52,603 bases of DNA from a virus (lineage: Duplodnaviria; Caudoviricetes). The DNA lies in the IMG/VR virus record IMGVR_UViG_3300012352_000629, positions 1 to 52,603 of that record; one strand, 5' to 3'. How positions within the stretch are numbered: the stretch's first letter is position 1; each line of letters begins with the position of its first letter. Of this stretch, positions 1-17,824 are shown piece after piece. Under the pieces are notes generated by a model that searched no databases, was not told the origin of the DNA, and was given only the letters and a program-made list of their open reading frames with translations. Position numbers and translations under genes: made by a program.

Positions 1-91
1 CACGAACTTCTACCAACTGCTTTACCTGCTCAAGAACAACCTTGGTTGCCTTGGTGGTCTTGGTGCTCTGGGTCTTTACTGCTACTGACAT
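1..91 (-). CDS. Hypothetical protein, N-terminal part (MSVAVKTQSTKTTKATKVVLEQVKQLVEVR...), runs off the window
   Basis: ATG at 91 with GAAAGGG RBS and upstream promoter; open to the window edge. Confidence 0.75.
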   Translation of the reverse strand, partial: MSVAVKTQSTKTTKATKVVLEQVKQLVEVR

Positions 92-135
92 TTTGTATCC
101 CTTTCATTTGATTCAACCTTTTGGCTGATGTAATC

Positions 136-164
136 AGCATAGCCTATGCCAAAACAAAAAGCAA
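136..164 (-). promoter_or_regulatory. sigma70-type promoter TTGCTT-17-TATGCT, with GACAC box at 179-183
   Basis: Read directly; same layout as other units. Confidence 0.75.
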
Positions 165-267
165 ATCTTTTTTCTGGCGTGTCGCCTCTGCTAGAAAAAA
201 TAACTACGGCTCCAACTTTTCACGAAAAAGAAAAACCCCGCCGAAGCGGGGTCTTGGTTGTCGAGGG

Positions 268-516
268 CTACTCGGCAGGTTGAAGCAGGAACTCCAGCAG
301 GTCTGGAAGATTCTCACCGTGGAACATCGGGTCGTAGGCGTAGACGCTCCAGCGGTCACCGCAACATCCTGGGCAACCATCTGAGAAGTCAATGCCATAG
401 TTCTTGGCAATGGTCTCCGCCTCGGCGCGAGTCTCGGCAACGATGGTCGCCATCTGAGGCATACCCTCTAGGAAGTAGCCTCCAGCGTTGTTCTGGTCTA
501 GAACGAACTTGGTCAT
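268..516 (-). CDS. Phage hypothetical protein (QNNxGG...CPxCGDRW type)
   Basis: ORF; start moved to ATG 516 behind GAAGGGGG RBS. Confidence 0.8.
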   Translation of the reverse strand: MTKFVLDQNNAGGYFLEGMPQMATIVAETRAEAETIAKNYGIDFSDGCPGCCGDRWSVYAYDPMFHGENLPDLLEFLLQPAE

Positions 517-562
517 TTTGTCCCCCTTCGGACTTAGGCTTTCACTCTGAAAGCCTAGTAAT

Positions 563-592
563 AACTTATCACTATTCCGTGTCATTTGTCAA
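563..592 (-). promoter_or_regulatory. sigma70-type promoter TTGACA-18-TAAGTT
   Basis: Read directly upstream of 268..516. Confidence 0.65.
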
Positions 593-697
593 GCCGTGAA
601 TCTTACGCACGGAAGCTCTAAGAAAAAATAACTACGAGCTCAGCCCAGACGGCAAAAAGAAAACCCCGCCACATTGGGCGGGGTCTCTCTGGCTTGA

Positions 698-1051
698 TTA
701 CTTGAGAGCAACCTGAAGGCATTTGTGAGGGCTGTTGTCGGCCCACTCGACCTTGATTCCATTGTCCTCGAACGCCTTGAGAACAATCTCTCCAGCCGAA
801 GTCAATCCCTCTGCTGTGGCTAGGTTGCTGTGGTTGAAATACATCGTGTCGAAGTCGGCGTAGTTTCCAACAATCGAAGTGCGATTACCCTGTCCACCAT
901 AGTGCCAAACAACTGGCACATTGTCGGCCAGCCCAAGGTCAATACAACTACGGCAACATCCCATTACATTCTTGCGAGCAACGATTCCAGCCTTGCGAAT
1001 AGCCTTCATCGCCTTGTCCATACGAACCTCTAGGGTCTCTGTCTGCTCCAT
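698..1051 (-). CDS. Hypothetical protein, DUF6891-like (GIVARxNxxCCxSC)
   Basis: ORF with GAAAGGGG RBS; motif recognition. Confidence 0.75.
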   Translation of the reverse strand: MEQTETLEVRMDKAMKAIRKAGIVARKNVMGCCRSCIDLGLADNVPVVWHYGGQGNRTSIVGNYADFDTMYFNHSNLATAEGLTSAGEIVLKAFEDNGIKVEWADNSPHKCLQVALK

Positions 1052-1235
1052 TTGTTTCCCCTTTCATTGCGCAACCATTTTTGGTTACACCAAAAGCCTA
1101 CCCTATCTACGACAAAAAGCAAATCGAATCTCCGTGTCGTGTCGCTGTCAGAAAAAATAACTATGCCCTCGCACCACAGACAAAAAAAGAACGCCTGCCT
1201 TTCGGCAGACGCTCTCTCTTTAGGGGGGACTAAAT

Positions 1236-1439
1236 CTATTCTTTTGCTAACGGGACTGTGTTGAGAATCTCTAACGCAGGAAGATACTCTGTCTCATAAT
1301 CTTCCTCACGCCATTCGTTCGTCTCTGAATCCCAAACTCGTTCATCTTTGCCGAACCTTGCTATGAATGTTTCATCATCTATGAACGGCACACCTGAATC
1401 TAAATCAACGGTGACAACGAAATGGACTTCTCTACTCAT
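1236..1439 (-). CDS. Hypothetical protein (MSREVHFVV...)
   Basis: TAATG-coupled to the upstream gene. Confidence 0.7.
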   Translation of the reverse strand: MSREVHFVVTVDLDSGVPFIDDETFIARFGKDERVWDSETNEWREEDYETEYLPALEILNTVPLAKE

Positions 1440-1591
1440 TACGAACCAAACATTCCCATCTCGTGTTGTAGCCAATCATCAAACTCATTCTGGCAATCGG
1501 CACATAGGGGGTGAACCTGTCCGACTTCCGCTTCAATCTTTGTTTCACATTGGTAGCAAGTTGTCTGCTCTTTGAGAATAATCTGAGCCAT
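1439..1591 (-). CDS. 50-aa Zn-finger-like protein (CYQC...CADC), not in the ORF track
   Basis: Translated by hand; TAATG coupling on both sides. Confidence 0.7.
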   Translation of the reverse strand: MAQIILKEQTTCYQCETKIEAEVGQVHPLCADCQNEFDDWLQHEMGMFGS

Positions 1592-1764
1592 TACGCACCA
1601 ACCTTTTCACGCTCGAAGAAATCTTCCAACGCTTCCATTGTTCCGCACGCTGAACAAATCTCTGTCGTGTTGTCTCGGCGTGAAATCGCACCGGGGTATG
1701 CCCCCGGGGTCTTGTTGTTCGGAATGTAGCCAGCGCACTTAGGGCAACGCTTCAACTCGTTCAT
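1591..1764 (-). CDS. Small Zn-ribbon protein (CPKC...AISRRDN..ICSACG)
   Basis: ATG 1764 overlaps the stop of the upstream gene. Confidence 0.75.
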   Translation of the reverse strand: MNELKRCPKCAGYIPNNKTPGAYPGAISRRDNTTEICSACGTMEALEDFFEREKVGA

Positions 1765-1976
1765 ACTGCCCACGCTCCGAAATCTAGGTCGCTTGCTTCT
1801 CGGCGTGAATCGCTCCACGCAGACTCGCCATAGAAATACTTCCTCTTGCCAGTAGCCACATCTGTCATACGCCAGTAGTCCTCTGGAAACTCGGCAGTCC
1901 CGACTGCCAGTTCAACTAGTTCGCTTGCGTAAACTGTGTCCCACTCTTTTACTGCTGAAACGCTTGGCTTTGCCAT
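1761..1976 (-). CDS. Hypothetical protein
   Basis: ORF with AAAGGGG RBS, first gene of its unit. Confidence 0.75.
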   Translation of the reverse strand: MAKPSVSAVKEWDTVYASELVELAVGTAEFPEDYWRMTDVATGKRKYFYGESAWSDSRREASDLDFGAWAV

Positions 1977-2267
1977 AATCGCTTCCCCTTTCTTGATAGT
2001 CCAAACTTACCACATACCTCAGGTATAAGCAACTACGCAACTTCCGTGAAAAGTTTCCCGCACGCAGCAGAAAAAATAACTATGCTTCGCAACGCAAGGG
2101 CAAAAGAAAAACCCTCGCAAGCGGGGGACACCTGCGAGGGTTTGACTTGGGGGTTATTCAGTTGTGTGTTTGTTGTTAGGGACAACTCTATTTGGCGTGT
2201 CTGCCACGCCCCTTTGCGTGACGACCCTTGGGCTGAACTAGCCCGAAAATTGTTAGCAACTTCCTCA

Positions 2268-2498
2268 TTACTTACCCTCTCCAGATACGAATGAAACGAA
2301 CTTGTTGAACTGCGGTGAGAATGTAAACATCACCGCAACGATAATGCCAATGCTAATCCCATTGAAAAAGGTTTCGCTAATGGTCTGGTTTGGCTCTCCA
2401 CCAATCAGTAGCAACATTAGGTAAAGGAATACCCAAGCACCTGCTACGAATGGAATTGCTAGAACTCCTGCTACTGCTCTGCGAATGTAAAACTTCAT
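2268..2498 (-). CDS. Small two-TM membrane protein
   Basis: Two hydrophobic segments; RBS. Confidence 0.75.
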   Translation of the reverse strand: MKFYIRRAVAGVLAIPFVAGAWVFLYLMLLLIGGEPNQTISETFFNGISIGIIVAVMFTFSPQFNKFVSFVSGEGK

Positions 2499-2541
2499 TT
2501 TGTTCTCCCTAACTTTCTATCAGGTTTTCCTGATACGAATA

Positions 2542-2570
2542 ACTATACCTAACACCACATCTAAAGTCAA
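2542..2570 (-). promoter_or_regulatory. sigma70-type promoter TTGACT-17-TATAGT, with GACAC box at 2582-2586
   Basis: Read directly. Confidence 0.75.
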
Positions 2571-2678
2571 ACATCTTTCTCGTGTCTGCGGAAGCGTTAG
2601 AAAAAATAACTATGCTTCAAGAATTTACGGAAAAGAAAACCCCGCCAGTTTTCTGACGGGGTCTGCGAAACTATGAAA

Positions 2679-3356
2679 CTACTTCTTAGCCTTGCTCACT
2701 CTCTTTGGCTTTGGCTTGGTTACGCTGTGAACATCTATGCCCCAGTTAGCAAGAATCGAGGCTGTGCTTTGCTTCAATTCCATTACCTGCGCTAGGTAGA
2801 CTTCTTGCTTGTTTCTATCTTTTAGGTCGGCAATCAAACTATCCAGCGACTTCTGCCACTCGACTACTCGCCTCTTGGTAAGTCTGTTAGTTCCGACTAT
2901 CGTGCGATTACCTTTAGCCCACGCTCTTGAGTATTGAATGTCGTGTGGCGCACCCAACTCTCCAGACGCAATAGCGTAAGTTCTAGAATCTGGTCGGCGC
3001 TTCAATAGAGTAGCAATCTCGGCTGACATTACTTCATCTCTAATCGGCAAACGAACCTCTTCGGCGTTTAGGTAGTAAGTAGTCCTGCTTGGTGCTTCTA
3101 GTTTGCGTTTGAGTTCTGCCCTCAATGCCTTGGTGTGAATTTGAACATACTCGGCTTCCCAGTCGGAAACTTCTTTTTTGGCTTTTGCTATTGCGTCTGC
3201 GAACGCCTGCTCTTGCGCTTCAATCAATGACTCACTGTCGGCGACTATCGCCTTTATACCCTCTAGGTATCCAATCACCACATACTTATTGACTGTGCCT
3301 AGCAACTTCTCACTTGGTGTAGTTCTGTAAGCCATCATTTTATTGTTTACTAGCAT
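2679..3356 (-). CDS. Hypothetical protein, helical with basic C-terminus
   Basis: 225-aa ORF, AAAGGGAGG RBS. Confidence 0.8.
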   Translation of the reverse strand: MLVNNKMMAYRTTPSEKLLGTVNKYVVIGYLEGIKAIVADSESLIEAQEQAFADAIAKAKKEVSDWEAEYVQIHTKALRAELKRKLEAPSRTTYYLNAEEVRLPIRDEVMSAEIATLLKRRPDSRTYAIASGELGAPHDIQYSRAWAKGNRTIVGTNRLTKRRVVEWQKSLDSLIADLKDRNKQEVYLAQVMELKQSTASILANWGIDVHSVTKPKPKRVSKAKK

Positions 3357-3536
3357 TTATGCCTCCCTTTGTTATGAGCAAGTTTACCAACCACCACTGA
3401 CATTCCCGTGAACTTTTTACGAGTGTCGTATCCTGGCAGAAAAAATAACTATGCTTCGAAAAAGAACGGCAAGGGAAAACCCCCACTAGGGAAATGTCAG
3501 TAAACCTAGTGGGGGTCAGGGGGGTGTTAGGGGGAA

Positions 3537-3872
3537 CTAACTCTTTCTATTTCTAAACTCTTGCCATTCGTCATAAATCTCACTCCGCATACTTCTACGG
3601 CGACTCTTTGGGTAGCGACTCTGCTCTGCCAAGAAAAGTATGTGTTCTGCTTCTACGGCACTAATGCCACCTAGGAAAAACACTCCAATCAGAATCAGTA
3701 GTTCTACTGTCGTGTCTACTCCAGCAACCATAAACATAACCACACAAAACGCTGAACCAAGTGTCACGCCACGAAACATAGTTGCTATGTGTTCGGCGTG
3801 ATTCATTCGATTCAAATAGACGGCACGCTTGTATTGCCCTCTGCGTTTGCGTTCGTGATAACTAAGTGCCAT
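3537..3872 (-). CDS. Membrane protein (2 TM)
   Basis: ORF coupled to the upstream gene. Confidence 0.75.
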   Translation of the reverse strand: MALSYHERKRRGQYKRAVYLNRMNHAEHIATMFRGVTLGSAFCVVMFMVAGVDTTVELLILIGVFFLGGISAVEAEHILFLAEQSRYPKSRRRSMRSEIYDEWQEFRNRKS

Positions 3873-4117
3873 TAGATACCAAACACCTCTCGCAACTTTT
3901 CATCTAGGCGAGCAAGATTACGCTCTGCTCTTGCTGACGAACCTACCAAATACATACCAGACAAAATCTTTATCTCGGCATTGGCATAGCACTCTGACGA
4001 GATAGAGGCTTTGGTGCTGTCACCATAAACGCTCTCGCCACCAGCCAACTTCATAGCACGCTCAAAGGCGAACTCTGCGTATAACTCTTTTGCTACCTTG
4101 TTGAGAATCTTTGACAT
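3872..4117 (-). CDS. Hypothetical protein
   Basis: ORF, GAAAGGGG RBS. Confidence 0.75.
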   Translation of the reverse strand: MSKILNKVAKELYAEFAFERAMKLAGGESVYGDSTKASISSECYANAEIKILSGMYLVGSSARAERNLARLDEKLREVFGI

Positions 4118-4281
4118 TTTTGTATTCCCCTTTCATCAACTACATTACCAACCCCCTCTGACATTTTCAACTTTTCATCAACGGCGTGTCGAAGCTCCAG
4201 AAAAAATAACTATGCTTCCAAATAAACTGGCAAAAGAAAAAGTGCCCGCCTTTCGGCAAGCACTCTTTCGGATAAACCTTT

Positions 4282-4749
4282 TTATGAAACTGAAACGCCA
4301 CCAGACTTTTCGAGAAAAACGGCAACTCGCTTAATCTCTGTAAGGTCTAGATAATCAGCAAGGTCGAACGTATTCCGAGTAACGCCTAACCCTTGGCATT
4401 TCGCGCAGAAACTTATGTACTGAGGCTTACCGAGACTGTCCAGTTCAGTAGTGCCTACACCATCGCAGTGTTCGCAAGTAATAATCGGCGACTTGATTGC
4501 CTCGTCGCGTGAGGCTTTCTTATACTCGGCTACTTGCTTGAGGGTGACTTTGTTTAGCAGTTCAGCAATAGTCTTAGTGTCCTCTGCCGACCACAAGGCT
4601 CTGTATGCGCTGAAAAATTGCTCAAGTTCTTCCGACTTTAGTGTAGTTTTGGCAAACTCTTTGAGAGCACTGAACCCAGCGATGCCTAGCACTATCTCCT
4701 TTTCACCATACTTAAGTCCCTTTGTCTTTGCCCTTAGACTTACGCCCAT
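4282..4749 (-). CDS. Hypothetical protein with DnaJ-type CxxCxGxG zinc finger; paralog of 13923..14441
   Basis: CEHCDGVG and CAKCQGLG; shared C-terminal FLxxSGG. Confidence 0.8.
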   Translation of the reverse strand: MGVSLRAKTKGLKYGEKEIVLGIAGFSALKEFAKTTLKSEELEQFFSAYRALWSAEDTKTIAELLNKVTLKQVAEYKKASRDEAIKSPIITCEHCDGVGTTELDSLGKPQYISFCAKCQGLGVTRNTFDLADYLDLTEIKRVAVFLEKSGGVSVS

Positions 4750-4918
4750 TTTGTTCCCCTTGTCCCTTTCCTATCAACTTTTGTTGATACCTAAATCCTA
4801 TCAGTCCTTGACAAATAAGCAAACACGCACGTAAACCCTCTAGAAAAAATAACTATCCACCCCCGAGCGCGGGCAAAAGAAAACCCCCCACTTTCGTGAG
4901 GGGCTAACTTTTTACGAA

Positions 4919-5272
4919 CTATCCTGTGAAGGCTTTTCGTGTCTCTTCGACAAGTTCCAACATCTCTGCCACATCTGCGTCGCTCAAGCCAATGGTGTAA
5001 CCCTCTGGGTCTGTGCCACCTGTGAGAACTACTGTCCCAAAGATTGGGCGATTGCCACCAATCTCTGAGTAGAGTGCTGAACCAATAATGTTTGCTTCCA
5101 ACTCTGGGCGGAAGATGAACTCCTCGTTCACCCACATAATCACATCTGACGCAACGACTACTGCTTCGATGTAACCATCAACGGCCTTCTGAAGTTTGCT
5201 CAATTCATCCTGAGCAATGTCAATGACACTTGCTTCCAATGCTGGTGTGATTACTACTGCTGACTTTGACAT
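4919..5272 (-). CDS. DUF3846-like protein
   Basis: LQxAVxGYIE...VNEE...N...I.G.VVLTG pattern. Confidence 0.75.
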   Translation of the reverse strand: MSKSAVVITPALEASVIDIAQDELSKLQKAVDGYIEAVVVASDVIMWVNEEFIFRPELEANIIGSALYSEIGGNRPIFGTVVLTGGTDPEGYTIGLSDADVAEMLELVEETRKAFTG

Positions 5273-5442
5273 CTCTGTCCCCTTTTCTGTCAGAATCTCT
5301 GACTAAGAAAATCCTAACACCTTCCACCGCATTACGCAAATCCTTCATAAAAAGTTTCCACCGGCAGCAGAAAAAATAACTACAACTTTTACGGCAAGCA
5401 AAAAAATACCCCGCCATTTCTGACGGGGCATTTCTTATTTGG

Positions 5443-5709
5443 TTATTGGTGACAACCGCACTCGCAGGTTACTGTTCCGCGTTTGGCTTCACGCAACTCT
5501 TTACGCTCGTTAGCAAGTTCTTTCAACTTAGTGTTGAACTTCTTGACTTCCCTAGCCCACTTCGACAACTCATCTAGGTTTATGCCTAGGTTGTCTTCAA
5601 CCCCAAGGTCATTCACAAAGTTCATAGCCAACTCTCGGCGTTGCTCTACAACTTCGTTTATTTCTTCTTGAACAATGGCAAGTCTTGCCTTTATCTCGTT
5701 GGTGTCCAT
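5443..5709 (-). CDS. Coiled-coil hypothetical protein
   Basis: ORF, AAAGGAG RBS. Confidence 0.75.
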   Translation of the reverse strand: MDTNEIKARLAIVQEEINEVVEQRRELAMNFVNDLGVEDNLGINLDELSKWAREVKKFNTKLKELANERKELREAKRGTVTCECGCHQ

Positions 5710-5832
5710 ACCAACTCCTTTCGTAGTATTACTACTTTACCGCACCTACTTAGAAAAGTCAAGTTGCTCTGTCGTGTTCGTATTGCTCGCAGAAAAAATA
5801 ACTACACTTCAAAACTTCACGGCAAAAGAAAA

Positions 5833-5934
5833 GCGGCAGTAGATTGGGGGGAATCTACTGCCGCGACTAGGTAAAGGGGGGGTAACCTAGTATCTTCAAC
5901 TGTTAGTGAGCAACTTTGCTGCTATCCAGTTGAA
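5833..5934 (-). ncRNA. 6C-like structured RNA: two adjacent hairpins with C7 and C6 loops plus an upstream hairpin
   Basis: On -: ACTAGGT-TACCCCCCCTTT-ACCTAGT then GCGGCAGTAGATT-CCCCCC-AATCTACTGCCGC followed by a U-tract. Confidence 0.55.
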
Positions 5935-5941
5935 ATCTATA

Positions 5942-6226
5942 CTACTCTACAAATTCTTCTTCCGCATCCACGCACCACGCGTCAAGGTGGTGATTAATAA
6001 TAATCTCACGCGCTGGCGCTGTCTTCTTACCGCGATAAGTTACTCCCTCGGGTAAGTCAATCTCTTTGTCCAACTCATCTGCCCAATAGCAATCAATTGC
6101 TTCGACACAAGGTGTAATCATTGATGACGGCACCGGCGGGAAGTGGTTGCCCCTTAGGTGCCAATCTAGTTGTTGCTCTAAGGTCAAATTAGTTTCCGCA
6201 ATTCCCATTGCTGTTACGTGTCCCAT
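5942..6226 (-). CDS. Phage hypothetical protein (HLxxNHxPP...HHL.AW)
   Basis: ORF coupled to the upstream gene. Confidence 0.8.
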   Translation of the reverse strand: MGHVTAMGIAETNLTLEQQLDWHLRGNHFPPVPSSMITPCVEAIDCYWADELDKEIDLPEGVTYRGKKTAPAREIIINHHLDAWCVDAEEEFVE

Positions 6227-6618
6227 TAGTCTTCCTCTCCAGTTCCATAATACTCATTAACTAAGTCTTCCTGAATGTTATCGGCGATGATGAATTCTTC
6301 GAATGTCCATTCGTGTGAACCGAATGTAACTCGCTGATTAGGGAAGTCAATCACCGCGTGAAAATAACTTTCCTCGAATAGGTTATCGCTATCATTGCCT
6401 ACGGCAATCCCGAATCCAGTTACGCTGTCCCATTCGTTGCCAATAATCTGGCTGATAAAAATACGCACGCCATAACTCGTATCGCTCCAGCGTGGCATTG
6501 CGCTAATAAGCGCTCGCTGTGTGTCGGCAAACTTATCTTCTCCGCCATTGTGGCTGTAAAGGTGAACGGCGTTCCCGCTGTTGTCCTCTTTGATAATCCA
6601 CGCTGTTCTCGAACCCAT
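6226..6618 (-). CDS. Phage hypothetical protein (MGSR...LYSHxGG)
   Basis: Start moved to ATG 6618 behind GAAAGGGG. Confidence 0.8.
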   Translation of the reverse strand: MGSRTAWIIKEDNSGNAVHLYSHNGGEDKFADTQRALISAMPRWSDTSYGVRIFISQIIGNEWDSVTGFGIAVGNDSDNLFEESYFHAVIDFPNQRVTFGSHEWTFEEFIIADNIQEDLVNEYYGTGEED

Positions 6619-6786
6619 TTCGAAACCCCTTTCTAGGTATGCCCTAATTCTATCAATCTGTCGTGAAAAGTCAACTTCATCTGGCAGCGGCGATTCGCTG
6701 AAAGTGTGAGAAAAAATAACTACACTCGGCGAGCGCAAAAGGGTAAAAGAAAACCCCGCCTAAGCGGGGCTAACTTTTTATGGTGT

Positions 6787-7122
6787 TTAGTAAGTTGGGG
6801 TGTATTGAATGTTGAGCATACGAACCAATCGCTTTTTGTTTGGCGATGGTGAGTAATACGCTAGAAACTTCTCTACCGCAGTTGCTGGTAGTGACCTTAG
6901 GATTCTGCCTAGTAGCGTGCTAGTGGTCTGGCTAATCTGCCAATCTGCTAGAGAAACAATCTCGTGAGTGTGAATGTTGTATTCGAGAATCGTAGTTCTC
7001 CAGTGGACAATCGTGTAGATTCCAGTGTCGCTCATCTCAGCTACAATCGTGCCATTGTAGTTTACGAATGGCTGAAACTTCTTGATGTAGCCATTGATTT
7101 CATAGTTAGCAATTCTTGCCAT
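6787..7122 (-). CDS. Hypothetical protein
   Basis: ORF, GAAAGGGG RBS. Confidence 0.75.
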   Translation of the reverse strand: MARIANYEINGYIKKFQPFVNYNGTIVAEMSDTGIYTIVHWRTTILEYNIHTHEIVSLADWQISQTTSTLLGRILRSLPATAVEKFLAYYSPSPNKKRLVRMLNIQYTPTY

Positions 7123-7292
7123 TTTAGTTCCCCTTTCGAACTTGCTATAAGTTTACCAATACCCTACGACATTTTTCGTGTTCGTGAAAAGTTTCGTGAA
7201 AAGTCTGTCACCTCCAGAAAAAATAACTATGACTTTGATTTACAGCAAAAAAGAAACCCCCGCATTTCTGCGGGGGCTTCTCGTGATTCTGC

Positions 7293-7610
7293 TTAGTCCA
7301 ACTTAGCCAGTTCGCTGGTGAGGCAAGCAAGCAAGGCTTCTGCTTCTGCCTTGGTAAATCTGTGGCTCAAGATGTCCACGTGAGTCGTGATTGGCTCGTC
7401 ACCATAACTGATTGAAACGTAGGTGTGACCAGTAATCGAAACCCAGACATTGTTGTCGTCTGCGTCTGCGCTGGTGTAGATGTCAATCGAGTTTGACACA
7501 TAGGTGTCGCTCTCGTCGTTGCTTCTAACAGAAACCTTGGCAGAGCTTTGCTCTCCAAGTTCAGTAGCGAGGTCTAGAACGACCTGCTCCTTTACAGCTG
7601 TGGTAGTCAT
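7293..7610 (-). CDS. Hypothetical protein
   Basis: ORF, GAGGGG RBS. Confidence 0.75.
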   Translation of the reverse strand: MTTTAVKEQVVLDLATELGEQSSAKVSVRSNDESDTYVSNSIDIYTSADADDNNVWVSITGHTYVSISYGDEPITTHVDILSHRFTKAEAEALLACLTSELAKLD

Positions 7611-7805
7611 AATGACTTTCCCCTCGTTTTGTATAAGCCTTGTTGCTTATGGAATAAGCGTATACCCTATGGCTGACATTTGTCAAATCTTTCTCGTGTG
7701 GCGTGTCGTGCCAGAAAAAATAACTACACTCGAAAAAATGACGGCATAAAAAATCCCCCAATCTGGCTCGCTGTCCAAGATTATTGGGGGAAAACTTTTT
7801 ATGGA

Positions 7806-8015
7806 TTACAAATAGCAATCTCCGCATTTAGGGATTCTGCCACCCAGGCTCTCAATCCAATCTTGAGTTCGCTGGTCTACTGTGTAATCATCTCCGCACT
7901 TGTAGCAAGTGTGCGTGTAGCGTGGCTCGTCTGGTGATAGTCGTCTGCCACTTCTCATAGCGAGGTTCGTAAGTTCCTCGTCTGTGAGTTCTGGATTCTC
8001 GGCGTGTAGTCGCAT
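7806..8015 (-). CDS. Small Zn-ribbon protein (CYKC...CGDC)
   Basis: ORF coupled to the upstream gene. Confidence 0.7.
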   Translation of the reverse strand: MRLHAENPELTDEELTNLAMRSGRRLSPDEPRYTHTCYKCGDDYTVDQRTQDWIESLGGRIPKCGDCYL

Positions 8016-8266
8016 TAGTCCCTCTCATCTCTCCATTGGTCGTAAGCGGCATCTTCATCATAGCCACCCTCGTCTGCTATCTCTTTGGTGAGGATAGCCT
8101 TACAATCTGGACACTCCGCACTTGCGTTGTGTCCCCAATCATCTGTCTGCCCATCTAGCACGAACTCGTCTTCGCAGTTGTCGCAGTAGAAGATACCTGA
8201 ATAATCCTCTTGGTAGATACCTGACCCCATCATAGAGCCACCATCTCCATAACTCCCTAATGACAT
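8015..8266 (-). CDS. Acidic Zn-ribbon protein (CDNC...CPDC)
   Basis: Start moved to ATG 8266 behind GAAAGGA. Confidence 0.75.
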   Translation of the reverse strand: MSLGSYGDGGSMMGSGIYQEDYSGIFYCDNCEDEFVLDGQTDDWGHNASAECPDCKAILTKEIADEGGYDEDAAYDQWRDERD

Positions 8267-8437
8267 TTCTTGTCCTTTCTGTCTTTCGACAATCTGATTA
8301 TTACATAGTGGTCGGACATTTAGCAACTTTTTATCAGCGTGTCAAAGTTCTAGAAATCTATCAGAAAAAATAACTATGGGGAAAATCAAGACAAAGAAAA
8401 ACCCCTAGCAGTTCGCTAGGGGTCAAATCTTTTTTGG

Positions 8438-8752
8438 CTATCGCAGGTCTGCGTATTGCTTCTGCCAATCGAAGTTTCTGACTGACTCTGCTTCCAAAAT
8501 GCTTTCAGCATTGTCGGGAACTTGAGCCATACGAAGTCCAGCCTGAATCACAAGTTCATACGAACCTACACCCAGTCCGTCTGCGATTGACTGGATAATC
8601 CCACTCGAAGGACACTTGTGTCCTCGCTCTACCTCTGATAGGTAACCCAGAGCAAGGTATCCGTTAGCACTTAGGTTGCGTAGCGTCAACCCTTTAGCAA
8701 GCCGTTGCTCTCGCACAACCTCGCCGAAAGCGGTCTGAAAATCTGTTCCCAC
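8438..8752 (-). CDS. XRE-family HTH regulator, ClgR/PopR-like
   Basis: R..RL..GLTLR.LS....LALGYLSEVERG.K.PSS..I..IA..LGV resembles the actinobacterial ClgR HTH. Confidence 0.8.
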   Translation of the reverse strand: MGTDFQTAFGEVVREQRLAKGLTLRNLSANGYLALGYLSEVERGHKCPSSGIIQSIADGLGVGSYELVIQAGLRMAQVPDNAESILEAESVRNFDWQKQYADLR

Positions 8753-8754
8753 TT

Positions 8755-9108
8755 CTACTCCTCGCCGTCCGTGTGGTCGTGGTCGCAGTTAGCGTGAGGG
8801 TCTGACCAGTTCTTGCCTTCTTCTTGCCAGCCGTTCTGCTCGATAATCCGCTCAACAACCTCGCCACATTCCATAGCGGTTAGTTTCAGATTGGTAATCA
8901 ACTCGTCCACGCCGTTCATAAGGTCGGTGTTGTCCGTGCCTTCGTATTCAAGCCGTGCCTTGAACTGCTCGGCAAGTTGCTCTGTTGCTTTCAACGCCCG
9001 ATACATAGTTGGGTCTGCGTATCCGTCTTTCACATACGACTCAATAAGCACGCCGACTACTGTGAGGGTAAGTCCCGTGATGTCCTCTAGTTCCAATGGC
9101 TGATTCAT
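8755..9108 (-). CDS. Hypothetical protein
   Basis: ORF, AAAGGGG RBS. Confidence 0.75.
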   Translation of the reverse strand: MNQPLELEDITGLTLTVVGVLIESYVKDGYADPTMYRALKATEQLAEQFKARLEYEGTDNTDLMNGVDELITNLKLTAMECGEVVERIIEQNGWQEEGKNWSDPHANCDHDHTDGEE

Positions 9109-9258
9109 TCAGCACCCCTTTCCTTTGGTATCAGATTACCACTAACTTCCGACAATTTCCACTCATTTCCTAATCGTGTCAAACCTGCCAGAAAAAATAA
9201 CTATTCGTGTTGATGAGAAAAAAGGGGCAGGGCTTTCGCCCCACCCCTCTCTCTCGTG

Positions 9259-9603
9259 CTACTTCGCCTGTCGTGTCACAGAACGAATAGGGTATTGCTT
9301 CTTGGTGACGAGGCACGCCTCGTAGACCTCTGGGAACTTGGTCTTTAGAAGTTCCATGTCCACAGACTCTTTCGACTGCTCTGCGATAACCGCAACCTCA
9401 ACGCCATTGTGGATTAGGGTCTGGGCTTTCTCGCCCACTACGGCAAAGATGTCTTTGCGTAGTTCGTCTACACGCTTGGTCGCCGAGTTCGCAATCGCAC
9501 GAACATCTTTCAGTTCGTCCAACATAGCCACGAACTTCTTTGTGACCTTGACGACCTCTGCTACTGGTGTTGCCTGTGTTGCTTGGGAAATGACCTTAGT
9601 CAT
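9259..9603 (-). CDS. Hypothetical protein (coiled coil, VD..LK..FPEVY motif)
   Basis: ORF, GAGGGGG RBS. Confidence 0.75.
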   Translation of the reverse strand: MTKVISQATQATPVAEVVKVTKKFVAMLDELKDVRAIANSATKRVDELRKDIFAVVGEKAQTLIHNGVEVAVIAEQSKESVDMELLKTKFPEVYEACLVTKKQYPIRSVTRQAK

Positions 9604-9962
9604 GACTTCCCCCCTCTTGGGCTACTTCTGTTTCACCCTGATTGGATACTCCAATCCTACCTCTTTTCAACCAAAAAGCAAATCAAAGTTTCCTGCGTGT
9701 CGCACCAGAAAAAATAACTATTGGGCTGGCAATCCGGGCTGGGGAGTGCCAACTTTTTACGAGCTAAAGAAAGTCAGAGCGGCAACTTTTATGATCACTA
9801 GAACTCCCAGAGCGATACCTCGGGAAAGGCGAAACCCCTACCAAGACTTGGGGGAAGCAACTTGATAGGGGTTTCTATTGACTATCCGTTGGGAACTAGT
9901 GTCAGGTGAAAGGGGGGAACTCCCGAGTTTCGCTCAACCTCTAGATAGGCAATCCGTTGTGC

Positions 9963-11828
9963 TTAGGTGAGTGAACCCACCTTTGCTAAGGCTTCGCTTG
10001 CCGACTTGCCGACTAGCAGGGCAATCTCGGCGGTGTCTAGGTTGTCCAAGTGAACTCCCCACGCCGATTCTCGGATAATGCTTCTAGCACCAATCGAGTA
10101 GCAATCTTTCGGTGTAATCCAGAGAACCGCCACGCCGTTCGCTTTACACTCTCGTAGAACCTTGACTGCCCATTCCGTCTGCTTCGGTGTGTAGTTGCCG
10201 TCTGAAACGATAACCAACATTCTCACGCCGTCACCGAAAGTCAATCCGAGTTCGCCGTCCAACGCCTCAAACGCCTCGCCAAACATTTCCGTTCCGTCTG
10301 GTGCGGTGTAAATCGTGACCTCGTTCAAACGCTGTCCACGCTTGAGAGTTGGAAAGATACCCGAGCCGTAGTAAATCATAGCCGTTTCAGCCTGAATCCT
10401 GCGACCTGCTTCGGAGAGAACCCACGCTGTCGTTCCCATAGCGTTCATAGCCGAACCCATAGAACCCGAGATGTCCACCATTACGCCAAGACGAAGTGTT
10501 GGGTCGTCTGTGTGCTTGCGTGTCTTTGACTTCCAAGTTGGGAGTTCGCCACGCATACCCATAGATTCGACTGCTCGATTCTGAATCAGATTCCTAGCAA
10601 TCAGTTTTCCCTGTGGCATTTGGGTCTTGCGAATGTGAACAGAGCGTTCACGATACTTCGCCTTTTCCAAAGACTTCGCAATCGAAACGGCACTTGCTCG
10701 CTCTGCCCCAGTTGGCTGTCTGCGAGTGTCCACTCGTGAACTTGAGCCACTTCCAGTTTCAGGGCTGTGGGTCTTGTCGAAAACCTGCTTCGCCTTTTGC
10801 TTGCGTTCGTTGCTCTTGTTCGCTTCGCTCTGGCGTGCCTTTGACTGCTCTTGAAACTGCTCGTGCTTCTCTTGGTCTGCGAGAGAATCGCTGGCGTTCA
10901 TCTCTGCTTCTGTGGCAGACTGCGAAAGTTTAGCAATCATCTTTTTCATAGTGTCAGACATTTCGCCCTCGCCAGATTCGCCCTCGCCCTCGCCCTCGCC
11001 AGATTCGCCCTCTGATTCCTCGAAAGGGTTGCCAACTGAACCTGCCTGTGGCTCGCCCTCTGGGTCTGCCTCACGCAAAAGTTCAACCCACTTCTTTGAG
11101 AGTTGAATCGCACGCTCGACCTGTGGCACGCCTAGCGACTGAAACTCAATCCAGACTTTGCGTAGTTCGTCAAACAAATCCTGACCAATAACTGAAACGA
11201 CTTCTCGATAGATGTCAGAGATGTCTGCCACCTCTAGCACGCCAGAATCTACTCGTGAGATTGCCAGACCTGCTAGTTGGGCTGTGTTCCAGATGTCACC
11301 TGCTAGGTTGCCAAGTGACTGCTCATTGACACCCTCAAGTGCCATTTCCAAAGCCGAAGTGCGTAGGAACAAACGATTCTCTGGTCGCTCTTTGATTCCC
11401 TTTGCTTCGATACGAGATTCCTCAAGCAACATAAATGCCTGTGCCTCAAGTGGCTCAAGTTGGGTGCTTAGGTATTTGGTATCCCACTTGGTATGACGAG
11501 CGTGTAGTGCTTCGTGGAATAGGATTCCAGTTGCCATTGGGAACTCATACTGAACTGCCTTGTCCATAATGTTTCCGACAAACTCTGCTGGCGTGAACTC
11601 TCCAAATGCTTTCGGCAAGTTCACCTCAATCTCGGCAATCTCTGAATAAAAAGCGGCGACTGCTCGACCCTCGGCAGAATCCTCACCTGCGTAAACTACT
11701 AGGTCGCTTCTCCAAGACCAGTCATTGACCAGTCGTCCAATCTGTGAACAAACTCGCAACCACTCTGGGTTGGTTGTCGCTGTTCGAGTTGTAAGTCTTG
11801 ACTTACCCTTTGCTTCGTAGTGTGCCAT
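9963..11828 (-). CDS. VWA (MIDAS) domain protein with N-terminal HExxH motif, CobT-like partner of the MoxR ATPase
   Basis: HEALH, EESRIE, acidic GE linker, VDISGSM MIDAS, IVSDG. Confidence 0.88.
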   Translation of the reverse strand: MAHYEAKGKSRLTTRTATTNPEWLRVCSQIGRLVNDWSWRSDLVVYAGEDSAEGRAVAAFYSEIAEIEVNLPKAFGEFTPAEFVGNIMDKAVQYEFPMATGILFHEALHARHTKWDTKYLSTQLEPLEAQAFMLLEESRIEAKGIKERPENRLFLRTSALEMALEGVNEQSLGNLAGDIWNTAQLAGLAISRVDSGVLEVADISDIYREVVSVIGQDLFDELRKVWIEFQSLGVPQVERAIQLSKKWVELLREADPEGEPQAGSVGNPFEESEGESGEGEGEGESGEGEMSDTMKKMIAKLSQSATEAEMNASDSLADQEKHEQFQEQSKARQSEANKSNERKQKAKQVFDKTHSPETGSGSSSRVDTRRQPTGAERASAVSIAKSLEKAKYRERSVHIRKTQMPQGKLIARNLIQNRAVESMGMRGELPTWKSKTRKHTDDPTLRLGVMVDISGSMGSAMNAMGTTAWVLSEAGRRIQAETAMIYYGSGIFPTLKRGQRLNEVTIYTAPDGTEMFGEAFEALDGELGLTFGDGVRMLVIVSDGNYTPKQTEWAVKVLRECKANGVAVLWITPKDCYSIGARSIIRESAWGVHLDNLDTAEIALLVGKSASEALAKVGSLT

Positions 11829-11946
11829 TTGCTTCCCTTTCATTTGGCTTATGTGTCTAGTTTACCCTTTTCGGGGAAAGTGTCAAGTCCATTTTGAAAA
11901 AACTTTTTCGACACTTCCCCCTCGGGTTATTTAGGGGACACGAACC

Positions 11947-13014
11947 CTAAATCTTTGCTGGCAGAATCGCCTCTCCGAATACTCGGGTGAATACATCACT
12001 AGCGATTGCTCTGTCAATCTCTGGTGCGGAAGCGAGCAAGTTTTGAACCGCCCACTTAGTTCCGAACAACTTGGTCAAATCTCTAAACGCTAGAAGTTCA
12101 CGCATTTGAGGCGACCACGAAGTTTCACCATTTTCCATTTTCTTTGCCAAGTTCTGTGAGGCGACAACCGCACTCTGCGGAACGCCCAACTTCTTTGCCA
12201 AGTTCCAGTCAGTTGTCAGTTCTGCCTGAATCGCAAAGCGAGATAGAAGTGCCTCGCTCAAACGAACACCTGCGACATTTGGGTTGGTCGCACTCACGAC
12301 ATAAAAGCCCTCTTGTGCTTTCACAACTCCACGCTCGGGATTCGCTGTGACGACCAGTTCTTTTCTTCCGTCCATTAGACCATAGACCACCGAAAGAACC
12401 TTTGGGTCAATCAGACCAATCTCGTCAATCAAAAGCACCTTGCCCTCGGAAGCCGCTTTTGTCAAAACTCCGTCCACCCACTCGAAACCGCCACTTGGGG
12501 TCTGGACATAGCCACCCACCAAGTCAGCAACCTCTGTGTCGCCAGAGCCAAGAATCGTGTAGAGTTCGTCTGGAAAAGCGGCTTCGACCATAGCAGTCTT
12601 ACCAGTTCCAGGGACTCCATAGAGCATTACATAGGCACTTGCTTCTCGTGCTTTGCGTAGCACTTCGACATCAGTATTTTCGCCCCACTTGCGACCAAAG
12701 TAAAGGTCGCCATTAGGTCGTGCGTATGATTCCGCACCCTCTAATGATTCTGCTGTTTCCATAACTTCCTCGAACTTGACTGGCTCGGCGATTGCCTCTG
12801 CTGAATCTAGTTTAGTCGGAGTTGAAACCTTAGTTCCAGACTTGGCTCGAAGTGTTGCTCGACCTGCTGGAGTTAGATGTTCGTCAAGAATCGAAGTCGT
12901 GATTCCGAAACTCGCACCTGATACCGCACCTGCTACCTGCTCGACCAACTTGTCGAAGTCAAGACCTGCGATAGTTGGGTCTGGGTGTTCTGCTACTACT
13001 TTGTTCTGATACAT
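11947..13014 (-). CDS. MoxR/CbbQ/CobS-type AAA+ ATPase
   Basis: Walker A GVPGTGKT, Walker B LLIDE, ATNP, ALLSRF. Confidence 0.92.
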   Translation of the reverse strand: MYQNKVVAEHPDPTIAGLDFDKLVEQVAGAVSGASFGITTSILDEHLTPAGRATLRAKSGTKVSTPTKLDSAEAIAEPVKFEEVMETAESLEGAESYARPNGDLYFGRKWGENTDVEVLRKAREASAYVMLYGVPGTGKTAMVEAAFPDELYTILGSGDTEVADLVGGYVQTPSGGFEWVDGVLTKAASEGKVLLIDEIGLIDPKVLSVVYGLMDGRKELVVTANPERGVVKAQEGFYVVSATNPNVAGVRLSEALLSRFAIQAELTTDWNLAKKLGVPQSAVVASQNLAKKMENGETSWSPQMRELLAFRDLTKLFGTKWAVQNLLASAPEIDRAIASDVFTRVFGEAILPAKI

Positions 13015-13058
13015 TTGGCTTCCGCCCTTTCGTGTCGTGTCTTTGTATCTGACTTGTA

Positions 13059-13673
13059 TTATGCCAGTTTTGTTGGGAACTTGTCAAGTGATTCACGAAC
13101 CTTGTTGATTCGGCGAATAACTGCTTGTGGAGTTTTGCGATTGAGGTGTAGGTCTGCGTAATCTTGGTCAGTCAGTTCGACTGCGATTGGCTTGCTATCA
13201 CGAACTACCCAACCCTGCTTTGCGATAGTCGAGCGATTGCCCTCTGAATCTGGCTCGCTGTAAGTTGTCGAGATAGTGTAGTTGCGTAGGAGATTTGCGA
13301 TTGCTCGCTTTCGAGAATCAAACTTCTCTCGCTCTGTGAGTTCGTCCCACTCGGCGTTGCTGTATGAGTTGTAGTTCACATACGAATCATTAGCAGAGTG
13401 AGCCTCTGCTGGCTTCAAACGGAATCTGTCTGTGTAGGTGAAATCCCATTGTGCCTTTGGCGAGAATGATGAAACTAGGCGTTCCATAACTACCGCACTC
13501 CACACTTTGCCTGTGTCGTCTTGATACTCTGGGAAAATAAGAATCTGCTTAGTTCCCTCGAACTGCCAACCCAACAAAGAGCGAAGTTCGTCCTTGTCCA
13601 TACTGCTGTCGCCAACCAACTCTAGGTAGAGTGCCTTGCCGACAATCTTTGGTGCTACTGCTGTGGTAGTCAT
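13059..13673 (-). CDS. Hypothetical protein upstream of the AAA/VWA pair
   Basis: 204-aa ORF, GAAAGGGG RBS. Confidence 0.8.
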   Translation of the reverse strand: MTTTAVAPKIVGKALYLELVGDSSMDKDELRSLLGWQFEGTKQILIFPEYQDDTGKVWSAVVMERLVSSFSPKAQWDFTYTDRFRLKPAEAHSANDSYVNYNSYSNAEWDELTEREKFDSRKRAIANLLRNYTISTTYSEPDSEGNRSTIAKQGWVVRDSKPIAVELTDQDYADLHLNRKTPQAVIRRINKVRESLDKFPTKLA

Positions 13674-13922
13674 TTGACTATCCCCTTTCGTGTCGTGTCG
13701 CTGGATTTTTCCAACAAGTAGATTGAAGCATACTTTTTACGGAATGTCAAATGTATCTCATAAAAAGTTTCATAACAAACTGATAACGGAACTTTTTTAG
13801 CAACCTGTAAGAAAAAATAACTACAAAGCAAAAATCTGCTAGAAAAAATAACTACAAATCTGGGCAAAGAAAAAGAGCCAGTTTAGACACTTGGCTCAGG
13901 TGTTTGACTTTACAGTCGGGGT

Positions 13923-14441
13923 CTAGCAGATTTCAAAACCACCAGAGTCTATTAGGAACTCTGCGAAGTCTTTGACATCATCTGGCTCTAGGTAATAGGA
14001 GGTGGCGAAGTTCTCACGCTTGCCAACTCCAGAGCAGGCATTACACGAACCCTTGGTGCGACCAACAATAATCGCAATGTCTGGCTCAAGTTCTTTTTCA
14101 GGCCACCCAGACTCTATGCCCAGTTGGTCTGTGCGAATACCTGTGCCTTCACAGATTTGGCAATCCTCGAATGGCAACTCAGACAGAGCCTTGTTTCGCT
14201 CGGCAACATACTCGACAACTTTTCCAGAGGTGTAGTCCTCCATCAAAAGTTTTGCCAACTTGGTGGCATTTCGTGAACCCAGTCCATCGCCATCGTTGGT
14301 GTGTGCGTGTTCAACCAACTCAGCAATCTCTGGGTGATTGTCCTCTACATAACCCCATAGTGGATGCCAGCCCCATACATTCCTACGGAAGTATTGACCA
14401 GCCTCTGACTTTGGGTTTTTCCCATAAACATCCATACCCAT
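13923..14441 (-). CDS. Phage protein (MGMDV...YFRRNVWGWHPLW) with DnaJ-type zinc finger
   Basis: CQICEGTG and CNACSGVG; RBS. Confidence 0.85.
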   Translation of the reverse strand: MGMDVYGKNPKSEAGQYFRRNVWGWHPLWGYVEDNHPEIAELVEHAHTNDGDGLGSRNATKLAKLLMEDYTSGKVVEYVAERNKALSELPFEDCQICEGTGIRTDQLGIESGWPEKELEPDIAIIVGRTKGSCNACSGVGKRENFATSYYLEPDDVKDFAEFLIDSGGFEIC

Positions 14442-14544
14442 TTAGGTATCCCCTTTCTTTGGTAGTTCAAGTAAACCATAAAAGGGTATAAGTGTCAAGT
14501 CAAATCAGACGCACTTATTTAGTGTCAGAAAAAATAACTATGAA

Positions 14545-14871
14545 TCAGAAAAAGTCGTATTCGTCATCATCAGCTTGGAAGTGACTTTTAACGACTGGAG
14601 GAAAGAAGGCGTCCACGTAGTCAAGCACTGGACTTGCGCACTCTTCACATACGACCCAGTCCTGGTCGTTCTCGTCAACTACTAGTACGAAGGGTTCGAA
14701 CTCGCATGTTGGGTTCGAGTAGCAAAGCTTCTCCTTGCACTCAGAGCAGTCCGTTACAGCTAGCTGCTCTGGCAGGATCAGACCAGAGGTGAGGGCGAGC
14801 TCTAGGTCTCGCTCGGTTTCAAAATAGTGGACTTCTAATGAACGCATGAGTATAGCATACAGCGAGCGCAT
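14545..14871 (-). CDS. Zn-binding hypothetical protein
   Basis: CSEC and CEEC; start may be 14847. Confidence 0.7.
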   Translation of the reverse strand: MRSLYAILMRSLEVHYFETERDLELALTSGLILPEQLAVTDCSECKEKLCYSNPTCEFEPFVLVVDENDQDWVVCEECASPVLDYVDAFFPPVVKSHFQADDDEYDFF

Positions 14872-14913
14872 GCCGTTGATTTGGAACGCGCTCGCCGTAG
14901 TGCTATAGCAGGC

Positions 14914-15387
14914 CTACCAACTTGAGTTGTAGTAGAAATCGTATCCGTTCATACCATCAGGCAGGCCAAGTATTTGGGCAAGCCGTTTTGCTGTCCAGTC
15001 GGTGGACTCAAAGTAGTACTCGTCATAGTCCGTGCCACCAAAGAAGAACCCACTCGCCGTTGGTAAATACTTAGCGGCTACCTCGCCCGTGCCACCTTCA
15101 ACAACCTTGCGGCAGGCCTCTTCAAGTTCTATCAACTTTTCACGAGAGACGTAGTAAGTCTTGCAGTCATCCGTGCCGTCTTGAACATTCTTCACAAACC
15201 ACTCGTGAATGTGATTGACCTTCCGCCAGTAAGCAACGTTCACGCTTACCGTAGCGAAGCGCTCATCGTGCATGTCTTGCAGCCCGACGGCTTCAGTTAT
15301 GTTCTTGAAGAGTTCTTGCTCTTCTGGCTTGGTGTGTGAATATCCGCTCACAAATTTGCGAGCCTCTAGGTACATGTCCAATCCCAT
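14914..15387 (-). CDS. Phage protein (MGLDMYL...YWRKxNxIHxWF...GFFFG...YxSSW)
   Basis: Recognisable phage hypothetical family motif. Confidence 0.85.
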   Translation of the reverse strand: MGLDMYLEARKFVSGYSHTKPEEQELFKNITEAVGLQDMHDERFATVSVNVAYWRKVNHIHEWFVKNVQDGTDDCKTYYVSREKLIELEEACRKVVEGGTGEVAAKYLPTASGFFFGGTDYDEYYFESTDWTAKRLAQILGLPDGMNGYDFYYNSSW

Positions 15388-15389
15388 GG

Positions 15390-15545: not shown

Positions 15546-15546
15546 G

Positions 15547-15726: not shown

Positions 15727-15749
15727 CTGAAGCCCCTTTCTTTGTGTGT

Positions 15750-16034: not shown

Positions 16035-16152
16035 GTGTTAACTGTAGCACTTCAGTGTCGAGAAGTCAAGTCCAGGCGGACCGTCTGCATTCGAAGCTTC
16101 CAGGCCGCAGCGTTAACGGGCCGTTAAAAGTTTGGATCCGGTTAGGTTACCC

Positions 16153-16750: not shown

Positions 16751-16958
16751 CTTGCTGCACGTCTTTCTTTTTTGATGAGTCGACAACAGTCTTCAGCTTA
16801 TCCCAATCTCCATGTGGTGAACCTTGGTATACCTGGCCAGTCTCTCGATCGATGAGTAACCACTTCTCCGGACTCTTGGTATACACCGTCATGATAATCG
16901 GTGAGCTGTACTCAGGGTAGTGGTGAGCTGTGCGATCACCCGTTGCATCATTAAGCAT
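16743..16958 (-). CDS. Hypothetical protein (TKSPEKWLLIDRETGQVY)
   Basis: Overlap-coupled ORF. Confidence 0.7.
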   Translation of the reverse strand: MLNDATGDRTAHHYPEYSSPIIMTVYTKSPEKWLLIDRETGQVYQGSPHGDWDKLKTVVDSSKKKDVQQDG

Positions 16959-17823: not shown

Positions 17824-17824
17824 C

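Follow-up and report, generated by a model that had tools for sequence, protein, structure and literature searches.

The virus record IMGVR_UViG_3300012352_000629 from IMG/VR (Duplodnaviria; Caudoviricetes), analysed in its entire length of 52,603 bp and referred to below as the window, begins with a block of about 14.5 kb in which short words of the restriction-site type are strongly depleted. The block occupies positions 1..14544, is truncated by the contig end at position 1 and carries an array of small gene cassettes. It holds 80 sites of 14 avoided palindromes, compared with 1817 sites in the remainder of the window. The depletion has sharp edges, reflects selection on words of double-stranded DNA, is conserved in related genomes and is still maintained. 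By analogy with phage T5, we consider it somewhat probable that the block is the first-exposed leader of a large (~150 kb) actinophage of a WhiB-encoding clade. From the same analogy we infer staged entry, the edge that would be the genome end, terminal redundancy, and the gene products that would act. The record is classed as linear and has a CheckV completeness of about 40%.

The initial annotation of the window had described a near-total avoidance of GATC to the left of about 14.5 kb, and the computed counts agree with it. GATC is present 123 times in the window, once in 1-14540 (9793..9796) and 122 times in the other 38 kb, including exactly 18 sites between 14776 and 18896, at the places that had been named. 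The palindromes TGCA, GTAC, CATG, AGCT and CCGG, described there as scarce left of 14545 and plentiful to the right, follow the same pattern in all five counts, with 0 and 172 sites in 1-14540 and 14541-52603 for TGCA, 1 and 133 for GTAC, 2 and 157 for CATG, 7 and 243 for AGCT, and 5 and 79 for CCGG. The same split gives 0 and 154 for ATAT, 4 and 180 for TTAA, 5 and 94 for ACGT, 4 and 73 for GGCC, 15 and 129 for AATT, 10 and 138 for TATA, 10 and 57 for CGCG, and 16 and 86 for GCGC. Fourteen out of the sixteen four-base palindromes are 3- to >100-fold depleted in the block, the exceptions being CTAG and TCGA. In the block, the ratio of observed to Markov-expected counts for these fourteen is 0.00-0.33, compared with 0.78-1.12 outside it, and the spared CTAG and TCGA reach 0.86 and 0.69 in the block. 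When all 256 four-mers were ranked by their left/right ratio, the ten most left-depleted were palindromes.

The 14 avoided words have one site per 182 bp in 1-14570 and one per 21 bp in the remaining 38 kb. The maximum-likelihood change point lies at 14570, the last inside site being found at 14487 and the first outside site at 14572, and the abrupt step that had been noticed at the end of the cassette array is placed by these counts at 14.49-14.57 kb. The right edge of the block is therefore as first described, but the block cannot be said to start at position 1, since it reaches the contig end and its far edge lies beyond the window. The last gene outside the block (14545..14871, minus strand) encodes a protein of 108 amino acids that is conserved in relatives, and has a normal palindrome density, with sites at 14572, 14588, 14615 and onward. 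The G+C content is constant across the step. Within the block, the 4308 nucleotides (nt) of 9793-14101 have zero sites of the 14 avoided palindromes. Six-base palindromes are also rare in the block (29, compared with 576 outside), as are the interrupted palindromes GGNCC (1/81, block/outside), GCNGC (12/192) and CCNGG (8/108); GANTC, TGNCA and TCNGA are not depleted in the block of the window. A tandem repeat as trivial cause was rejected, the only array found being one of 51 nt at 10962-11012. The word CTCGAG is missing from the entire window, with 3.7 sites expected in the block and 5.2 outside.

Synonymous-codon shuffling of 19 block genes (9186 nt) gave 401±18 expected sites, with a minimum of 345 in 300 shuffles, compared with 45 observed. 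Recoding of the block genes with the codon usage of the outside genes gave a similar value, 409±17 sites, so that codon usage is the same in both parts and the avoidance sits in the arrangement of codons only. The same shuffling applied to 25 outside genes gave 871±24 expected sites for 867 observed. Composition, codon usage or amino-acid usage does not explain the depletion.

The window was further compared with three complete relatives and a fourth, partial record; for these five genomes, 77 kb of block sequence were pooled and compared with 483 kb of outside sequence. In this pool, the top 13 strand-symmetrised four-mers by depletion are without exception palindromes. Longer words that contain none of these 13 palindromes are also depleted in all or nearly all genomes, as measured by the ratio of block to outside density. 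Among them are GGWCC (0.04), GCATC (0.08), GCWGC (0.09), CCWGG (0.12), GGATG (0.16), CCATC (0.26), CCTTC (0.27) and words of the CTNAG type (0.25), together with the hexamers CTACAG (0.04), GAATGC (0.06), GCTAGC (0.07), GTTGAC (0.11) and CTCTTC (0.14), and ATCGAT, with 0 sites for 17.4 expected. GACGC, which seemed depleted inside a hexamer, is not depleted as a 5-mer and was dropped. On the sense strand, non-palindromic words are depleted in both orientations, with ratios of 0.07 for GCATC and 0.10 for GATGC, and of 0.06 for GAATGC and 0.07 for GCATTC. This indicates that the agent reads double-stranded DNA and excludes a cause at the level of RNA.

The depleted words resemble a catalogue of Type II and Type IIS recognition sequences, and restriction enzymes as the agent that drove the depletion of the block are well supported. 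CTAG and TCGA are spared in five of the five genomes, and CATG, GCGC, AGCT and GANTC vary by lineage. Some relatives lack particular words throughout: the relative G001 is essentially without GATC and CCGG across 154 kb, and G002 and G004 are without CCGG. Such a lack is a classical mark of restriction and shows restriction-type pressure in their hosts. No DNA methyltransferases of the families PF01555, PF00145 and PF02086 were detected in any of the five records, and self-methylation by these families therefore does not protect the site-rich remainder. Phage-borne methyltransferases were rejected as cause of the sparing of CTAG and TCGA, the three Pfam families being absent from the five records. 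The first 50 kb of phage DSL-LC01 (OQ999401.1, 1-50000; 55% G+C) have zero ATAT and zero TTAA sites and no regional block, which looks like a genome-wide avoidance of two A/T palindromes.

The three complete relatives have genomes of 152-154 kb, and their closing overlaps lie at non-syntenic positions, as expected for circular assemblies. Depletion affects exactly one block in each of the three; this block is 13.9-14.2 kb long, makes up about 9% of the genome and has 8-11 sites per kb, compared with 43-50 outside. It extends from about 2 kb upstream of a gene for a MoxR/CobS-like AAA+ ATPase to a point 5-8 kb ahead of the gene for the large terminase. In the fourth, partial record the block measures at least 20.8 kb, and its density is 1.5 sites per kb. 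Both block edges change within 200 nt in G002 and G003. An orthologue of the gene for the 108-amino-acid protein is found ahead of the block in G001-G003 and many further loci.

Searches with the ATPase retrieved 55 IMG/VR loci and 80 metagenome loci. In the window, this gene (11947..13014, minus strand; PF07728 AAA_5, expectation value (E) 1.5e-21; phrog_16448, E 6.7e-52) sits in the most thoroughly purged part of the block (9793-14101). Sixty-five out of 103 distinct ATPase orthologues had an upstream flank of at least 2 kb and were testable for a step, which was called strong when the upstream flank had at least 35 sites per kb and the ATPase gene at most 0.3 of that density. A strong step was present in 30 of them and a weaker one in 14; 18 had none, and three had low densities throughout. 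Across relatives the palindrome density of the ATPase gene ranges from 0 to 55 sites per kb.

The closest relative, L099, is a 148-kb contig with an ATPase of 93% identity, the same repeated 14-mer as the window (15 copies) and the same step. In 10,834 aligned bases of the block, 1676 substitutions (15.5%) separate the window from L099. The two possess 62 and 55 sites there, respectively, whereas the same substitutions placed randomly yield 330±17 sites. Outside the block, at 20.4% divergence, the two contigs possess 279 and 258 sites, and random placement yields 278±14. Selection against the words is therefore ongoing. The block is also less diverged from L099 than the adjoining ordinary region.

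All genes of the block are encoded on the minus strand and are organised in cassettes. A 14-mer, TAGTTATTTTTTCT, is present on the minus strand in 19 exact copies within 193-14540 and has no exact copy elsewhere in the window. The most upstream copy (14527..14540), 4 nt past the stop codon of the preceding ordinary gene, opens the array at the near edge of the block; the other 18 copies start at 193, 621, 1150, 2069, 2599, 3438, 4199, 4842, 5369, 5791, 6709, 7216, 7713, 8363, 9190, 9707, 13810 and 13841. The gene that belongs to the last copy (193..206) runs past the contig end. The sole other match, with two mismatches, lies on the opposite strand at 20166, where 0.8 matches with up to two mismatches are expected by chance. 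Each cassette has the order terminator, TAGTTATTTTTTCT copy, gap of 7-34 nt, TTGAC-type −35 element, −10 element, GAAAGGGGA-like ribosome site, and one to three small genes. A block-confined exact repeat was found in each of the five genomes (19 copies in the window, and 14, 14, 15 and 18 in the others), and its word is genome-specific. The repeat thus evolves in concert within a genome, which points to a co-evolving recognition factor or to gene conversion.

In the complete relatives, the far edge of the block is a non-coding gap of 740-890 nt after the last cassette (three of three). The first 550-650 nt of this gap are still without avoided words and hold simple repeats. The words return at a conserved element, …CACCCGCCAAAAGCAGT…, which is unique on its strand in each genome and is followed by an A/T-rich run and then by a promoter-like site for the next genes. 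This element marks the transition in eight related contigs, and four of the 12 pattern matches are unrelated chance matches. Contig L088 ends 37 nt past the element, beside a run of C that could break assembly. At 122500-122600 of G002, a run of CACATCA units and many CATAG and TAGA words were found in the palindrome-free part of the gap, and the A/T-rich AAAATTTCCAAAAAATTTTTTAAAA after the element. By comparison with G002, the window probably stops about 0.85 kb short of the far edge.

The sequencing data consist of Logan assembled contigs from four runs compared with the window, and such contigs give no read starts or true depth. One related contig, the only one from run X3, spans 1-20000 and runs 1555 nt beyond position 1. 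The mean contig depth of the block relative to the outside is 0.95 (X1), 1.25 (X4) and 2.1 (X5), values that sum several strains and cannot rank regions. The window ends share no direct or inverted repeat of at least 10 nt. The relatives close as circles with overlaps of 124-127 nt, which are compatible with a collapsed terminal repeat or with permuted genomes. The window, G001, L099 and L102 are most thoroughly purged towards the near end of the block, and G003 and G004 are not, a comparison that is confounded by gene conservation.

An advantage from removing sites in a single segment requires that this segment be exposed and the remainder not, and this argues for a block that is first exposed. 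According to this reading, selection would strip Type II recognition words base by base, mostly at synonymous positions, from the leader only, and the other ~90% of the genome would keep them at random frequency. Before the phage has its protection in place, host nucleases would have access to the leader only; it would enter first, as the first-step-transfer DNA of T5 does. Host RNA polymerase would express its genes, and at least one product would neutralise restriction or let the remainder enter. On the T5 model, the DNA would enter from the near edge at 14.54 kb, with the non-coding far edge as its stop region. That the block may enter first, may be terminally redundant and may end the genome near 14.5 kb, and that the cassette genes may act against host defences, had been proposed in the initial annotation and is suggested tentatively by the analogy. 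A more specific version, which we regard as possible but tentative, is that the clade independently evolved a T5-style two-step delivery. The block would then be terminally redundant first-step DNA that ends at the 14.54-kb junction, the stop signal would be CACCCGCCAAAAGCAGT, about 0.85 kb past the left end of the window, and anti-restriction or second-step entry would be driven by the most strictly purged genes, those of the ATPase and its CobT-like partner.

In T5-like phages, restriction takes hold only at sites in the first-step-transfer DNA, according to the accessible part of PMC10644984. Similarly, the early-injected region decides Type I sensitivity in Autographiviridae, and the authors of that study note, in its accessible part, that studies of avoidance have ignored where sites lie (PMC12455610). 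The first-step-transfer DNA of T5 makes up about 8% of the genome (within the left repeat of 10,219 bp of 121,750 bp), and the block about 9%. Both have small early genes with host-type promoters beside an early region rich in lysis genes and tRNAs. The long non-coding gap at the far edge of the block in the complete relatives recalls the non-coding injection-stop region at the inner border of T5 (PMC10644984, accessible part). By this likeness, staged entry and terminal redundancy may apply to the block; a difference from T5 is the probably actinobacterial host. Compared with the T7-like Autographiviridae, where the first-entering part also decides restriction sensitivity (PMC12455610, accessible part), the present phage differs in size and organisation, these being ~40-kb podoviruses with their own RNA polymerase and one early operon, and the present genome being ~150 kb with about 19 promoter-terminator units.

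Genome-wide avoidance of sites in phages and plasmids is similar in that Type II words are removed by selection, as described in the accessible parts of PMC6286503 and PMC10359461. Here, however, only a single contiguous block is affected, with edges resolved within at most 200 nt, and the avoidance concerns nearly all short palindromes, not the sites for the enzymes of one host. Early genes of T7-like phages are transcribed by the host polymerase, away from the entering end. The promoter-stem-loop cassettes of T4-type phages and the host-takeover module of SPO1 have repeated units of early promoter and terminator that flank small shuffled genes without assigned function, and the SPO1 module lies in a terminal repeat of ~13 kb. 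We know of no report of site avoidance in either array. A literature search, with subscription journals and supplements outside its reach, found no block-limited avoidance of palindromes in phages.

Several results weigh against the reading of the block as a first-entering leader. The initial annotation had started from the premise that the first-entering DNA of T5 and T7 is depleted of sites; what holds is that only sites in first-entering DNA matter in T5-like phages and Autographiviridae (PMC10644984 and PMC12455610, accessible parts), whereas the T5 segment itself is not generally depleted, with 68.6 four-base palindromes per kb compared with 64.3 in the next 30 kb. In this respect T5 differs from the purged block described here. 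Homologues of T5 A1, A2 and dmp are also lacking (best E 0.04-0.66), and a tblastn search of the five genomes with 15 T5 pre-early proteins gave no match better than E 0.04. No family named for anti-restriction was matched among the 20 block proteins scanned. The control phages GodonK, BRock and DSL-LC01 have no depleted block; GodonK and DSL-LC01 are cultured relatives by terminase or ATPase. ATAT is the most strictly avoided word, and we know of no enzyme that recognises it. CTAG and TCGA, in turn, are spared in all five genomes.

Other such results concern the purged stretch and its near edge. In L023 and L041 only ~3 kb around the ATPase/CobT-like gene pair are purged (2-11 sites per kb), with flanks of 45-70. 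A purged stretch can thus persist or move outside a full block, and this core either exists without the rest of the block or was transferred recently as a module. All near edges compared have the same structure, namely the stop codon of the conserved gene, 4-6 nt, and the first repeat, with no spacer, and the junction is spanned by a single contig in 27 out of 135 related loci. A simple, non-redundant end at this place is therefore unlikely. No pile-up of contig ends was found at the near edge in related loci, where only L130 begins 58 nt before the first gene. An end at the near edge would need terminal redundancy or reads derived from concatemers.

The purge could also be a real response to restriction without staged delivery, the rest of the genome being shielded by base modification or a packaged protein, or the block being briefly a separate early molecule. 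ThyX, dUTPase, three 2-oxoglutarate (2OG)-Fe(II) oxygenase-like proteins, a carbamoyltransferase and a HAD hydrolase of the window could, from their sequences, form a modification pathway; contigs cross both block edges, and the circular assemblies of relatives also fit headful packaging. Nonetheless, the sharp double edge and the match to a single class of promoters are more in keeping with a physical or temporal boundary, and no mechanism is known to us by which a contiguous 9% of a genome would escape modification, so that we consider this explanation unlikely. Another proposal, which we hold to be quite unlikely, is that the block avoids early nucleases of the phage itself that degrade host DNA at short words, for which staged entry would still be required. 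Pre-early functions of T5 destroy host DNA, and its sparing of its own DNA is described as unclear in the accessible part of PMC10644984. The core of avoided words is largely common to the five genomes, as for a conserved phage-borne activity. However, more than 20 distinct words would demand many nucleases, and the 20 block proteins scanned include no nuclease family, apart from a weak RecE-like PHROG match (E 1.1e-6, 86 residues). The whole-genome loss of words in some relatives and the differences between lineages fit variable host enzymes better.

It is very improbable that the block is a historical relic, now neutral, from a replicon purged elsewhere, such as another phage or the leading region of a plasmid. 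Cassettes do move, as seen from the first-cassette gene located downstream of the ATPase in seven relatives, and L023 and L041 retain only the purged core, but the avoidance was kept through 15.5% divergence (55 sites compared with 330±17 expected) and the position of the block is identical in three complete genomes. Selection on RNA or on secondary structure of DNA, such as selection against hairpins, RNase targets or mRNA-cleaving toxins in strongly expressed early RNAs, would suit a block that is dense in promoters and terminators and probably highly transcribed. Yet non-palindromic words are depleted equally in both sense-strand orientations, CTAG, TCGA, GANTC and TGNCA are spared, and four-base palindromes are too short for stable hairpins; we regard this explanation as extremely improbable.

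The phage that carries the block is assigned, from its sequence, to a freshwater actinophage clade. Its nearest named relative is Actinomycetia phage DSL-LC01 (ATPase 69%, terminase 73%), followed by Microbacterium and Gordonia phages. WhiB (PF02467, above cut-off) was found in four of the five records, with two copies per complete relative and none in the window, which represents about 40% of the genome. WhiB is restricted to Actinobacteria and their phages, according to the accessible part of PMC6802176, which makes no mention of restriction, palindromes or terminal repeats. Judged from WhiB, the host is probably actinobacterial. Isolates of phages that infect 'Ca. Nanopelagicales' exist (PMC10202952). 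The 23 runs that hold window sequence are mostly labelled as freshwater metagenome, two as shale gas and several plainly as 'metagenome'.

The genes of the block, all on the minus strand, encode mostly proteins without assigned family. The first cassette has a sigma-70-like promoter at 14475..14503 (TTGACT, 17 nt, TATGGT; a consensus match only), followed by a strong ribosome-binding site. Its gene (13923..14441) encodes an acidic protein of 172 amino acids with two CxxC pairs and without assigned function, with a mean column identity of 76% among 21 orthologues and a model with a predicted local distance difference test score (pLDDT) of 83.5. The model has no match in the PDB, the best E being 1.1 for lambda Q, which was rejected as structural relative at a template modelling score (TM) of 0.1-0.2. 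Only weak matches to zinc-ribbon or 'Q-like' families (E 0.003-0.01) were found in Pfam and PHROGs, and only viral 'hypothetical protein' clusters in Atlas. This gene is located 4-8 kb downstream of the ATPase in L023, L028, L052, L054, L141, L143 and L156, which shows that cassettes are reordered within the array.

The next gene (13059..13673) encodes a protein of 204 amino acids without assigned function, with no Pfam or PHROG match; a lead from Atlas was rejected, as its best score (0.80) is in the chance range. Downstream of the ATPase, a CobT-like protein of 626 amino acids (9963..11843) is by sequence the partner of the MoxR/CobS-like ATPase. It possesses a possible VWA domain (Pfam VWA_CoxE, E 0.0055, below cut-off) and is 40-45% identical to a DSL-LC01 protein annotated as 'cobalamin biosynthesis protein'. 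An XRE-type helix-turn-helix protein (8438..8752; PF01381 HTH_3, E 2.6e-7, above cut-off) is a candidate regulator of the array. The block also encodes an acidic DUF3846 protein (4919..5272; isoelectric point (pI) 4.1; PF12957, E 2.8e-17) and a DUF6891-like protein (698..1051; PF21831, E 4.8e-6, at cut-off). The remaining block proteins have no assigned family, and many are small and acidic (pI 4.1-4.6).

Outside the block, the window harbours genes for an endolysin-like protein, ThyX, dUTPase, a carbamoyltransferase, a serine recombinase, a HAD hydrolase and seven tRNAs, and no structural genes were seen in the window. With this content the window is a fragment of a large phage. The endolysin-like gene (16951..17823, minus strand; phrog_9589, E 1.7e-15) is syntenic with the endolysin of DSL-LC01 and lies 2.4 kb upstream of the block. 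The tRNA genes (Arg, Asp, Leu, Met, Gln, Thr, Glu) are clustered at 37397-38647 on the minus strand, and several are 87-98% identical to those of unrelated large phages. The three 2OG-Fe(II) oxygenase-like paralogues (35918-36532, 48707-49381 and 49378-49998) and the Nol-type carbamoyltransferase (40810-42246) may, together with ThyX, dUTPase and the HAD hydrolase, constitute a set for nucleotide or DNA modification. The stretch 22800-28000 is the sole long run of plus-strand genes, with a strongly positive AT skew (up to 0.23), and encodes a 768-amino-acid protein without assigned function and a peptidase/endolysin-like protein (27163-27996). A serine recombinase/invertase gene (46978-47673, minus strand) is present too in DSL-LC01, G001 and G004.

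Restriction of first-entering DNA is known from few laboratory phages, where it was demonstrated site by site. Here the same logic appears at the scale of a genome: more than 20 recognition words have been removed from a contiguous ~9%, the pattern recurs in dozens of uncultured genomes, and selection for it continues. If staged entry is true, the order of DNA entry and the pre-early genes for host takeover or anti-defence would become predictable from sequence in uncultured phages, and about 25 small, often acidic proteins without assigned function would be candidates for anti-restriction by new mechanisms. The avoided words would then record, indirectly, which restriction enzymes occur in abundant freshwater Actinobacteria and, if the two-step delivery is true, this read-out of their repertoire would include specificities without a known enzyme, such as ATAT.

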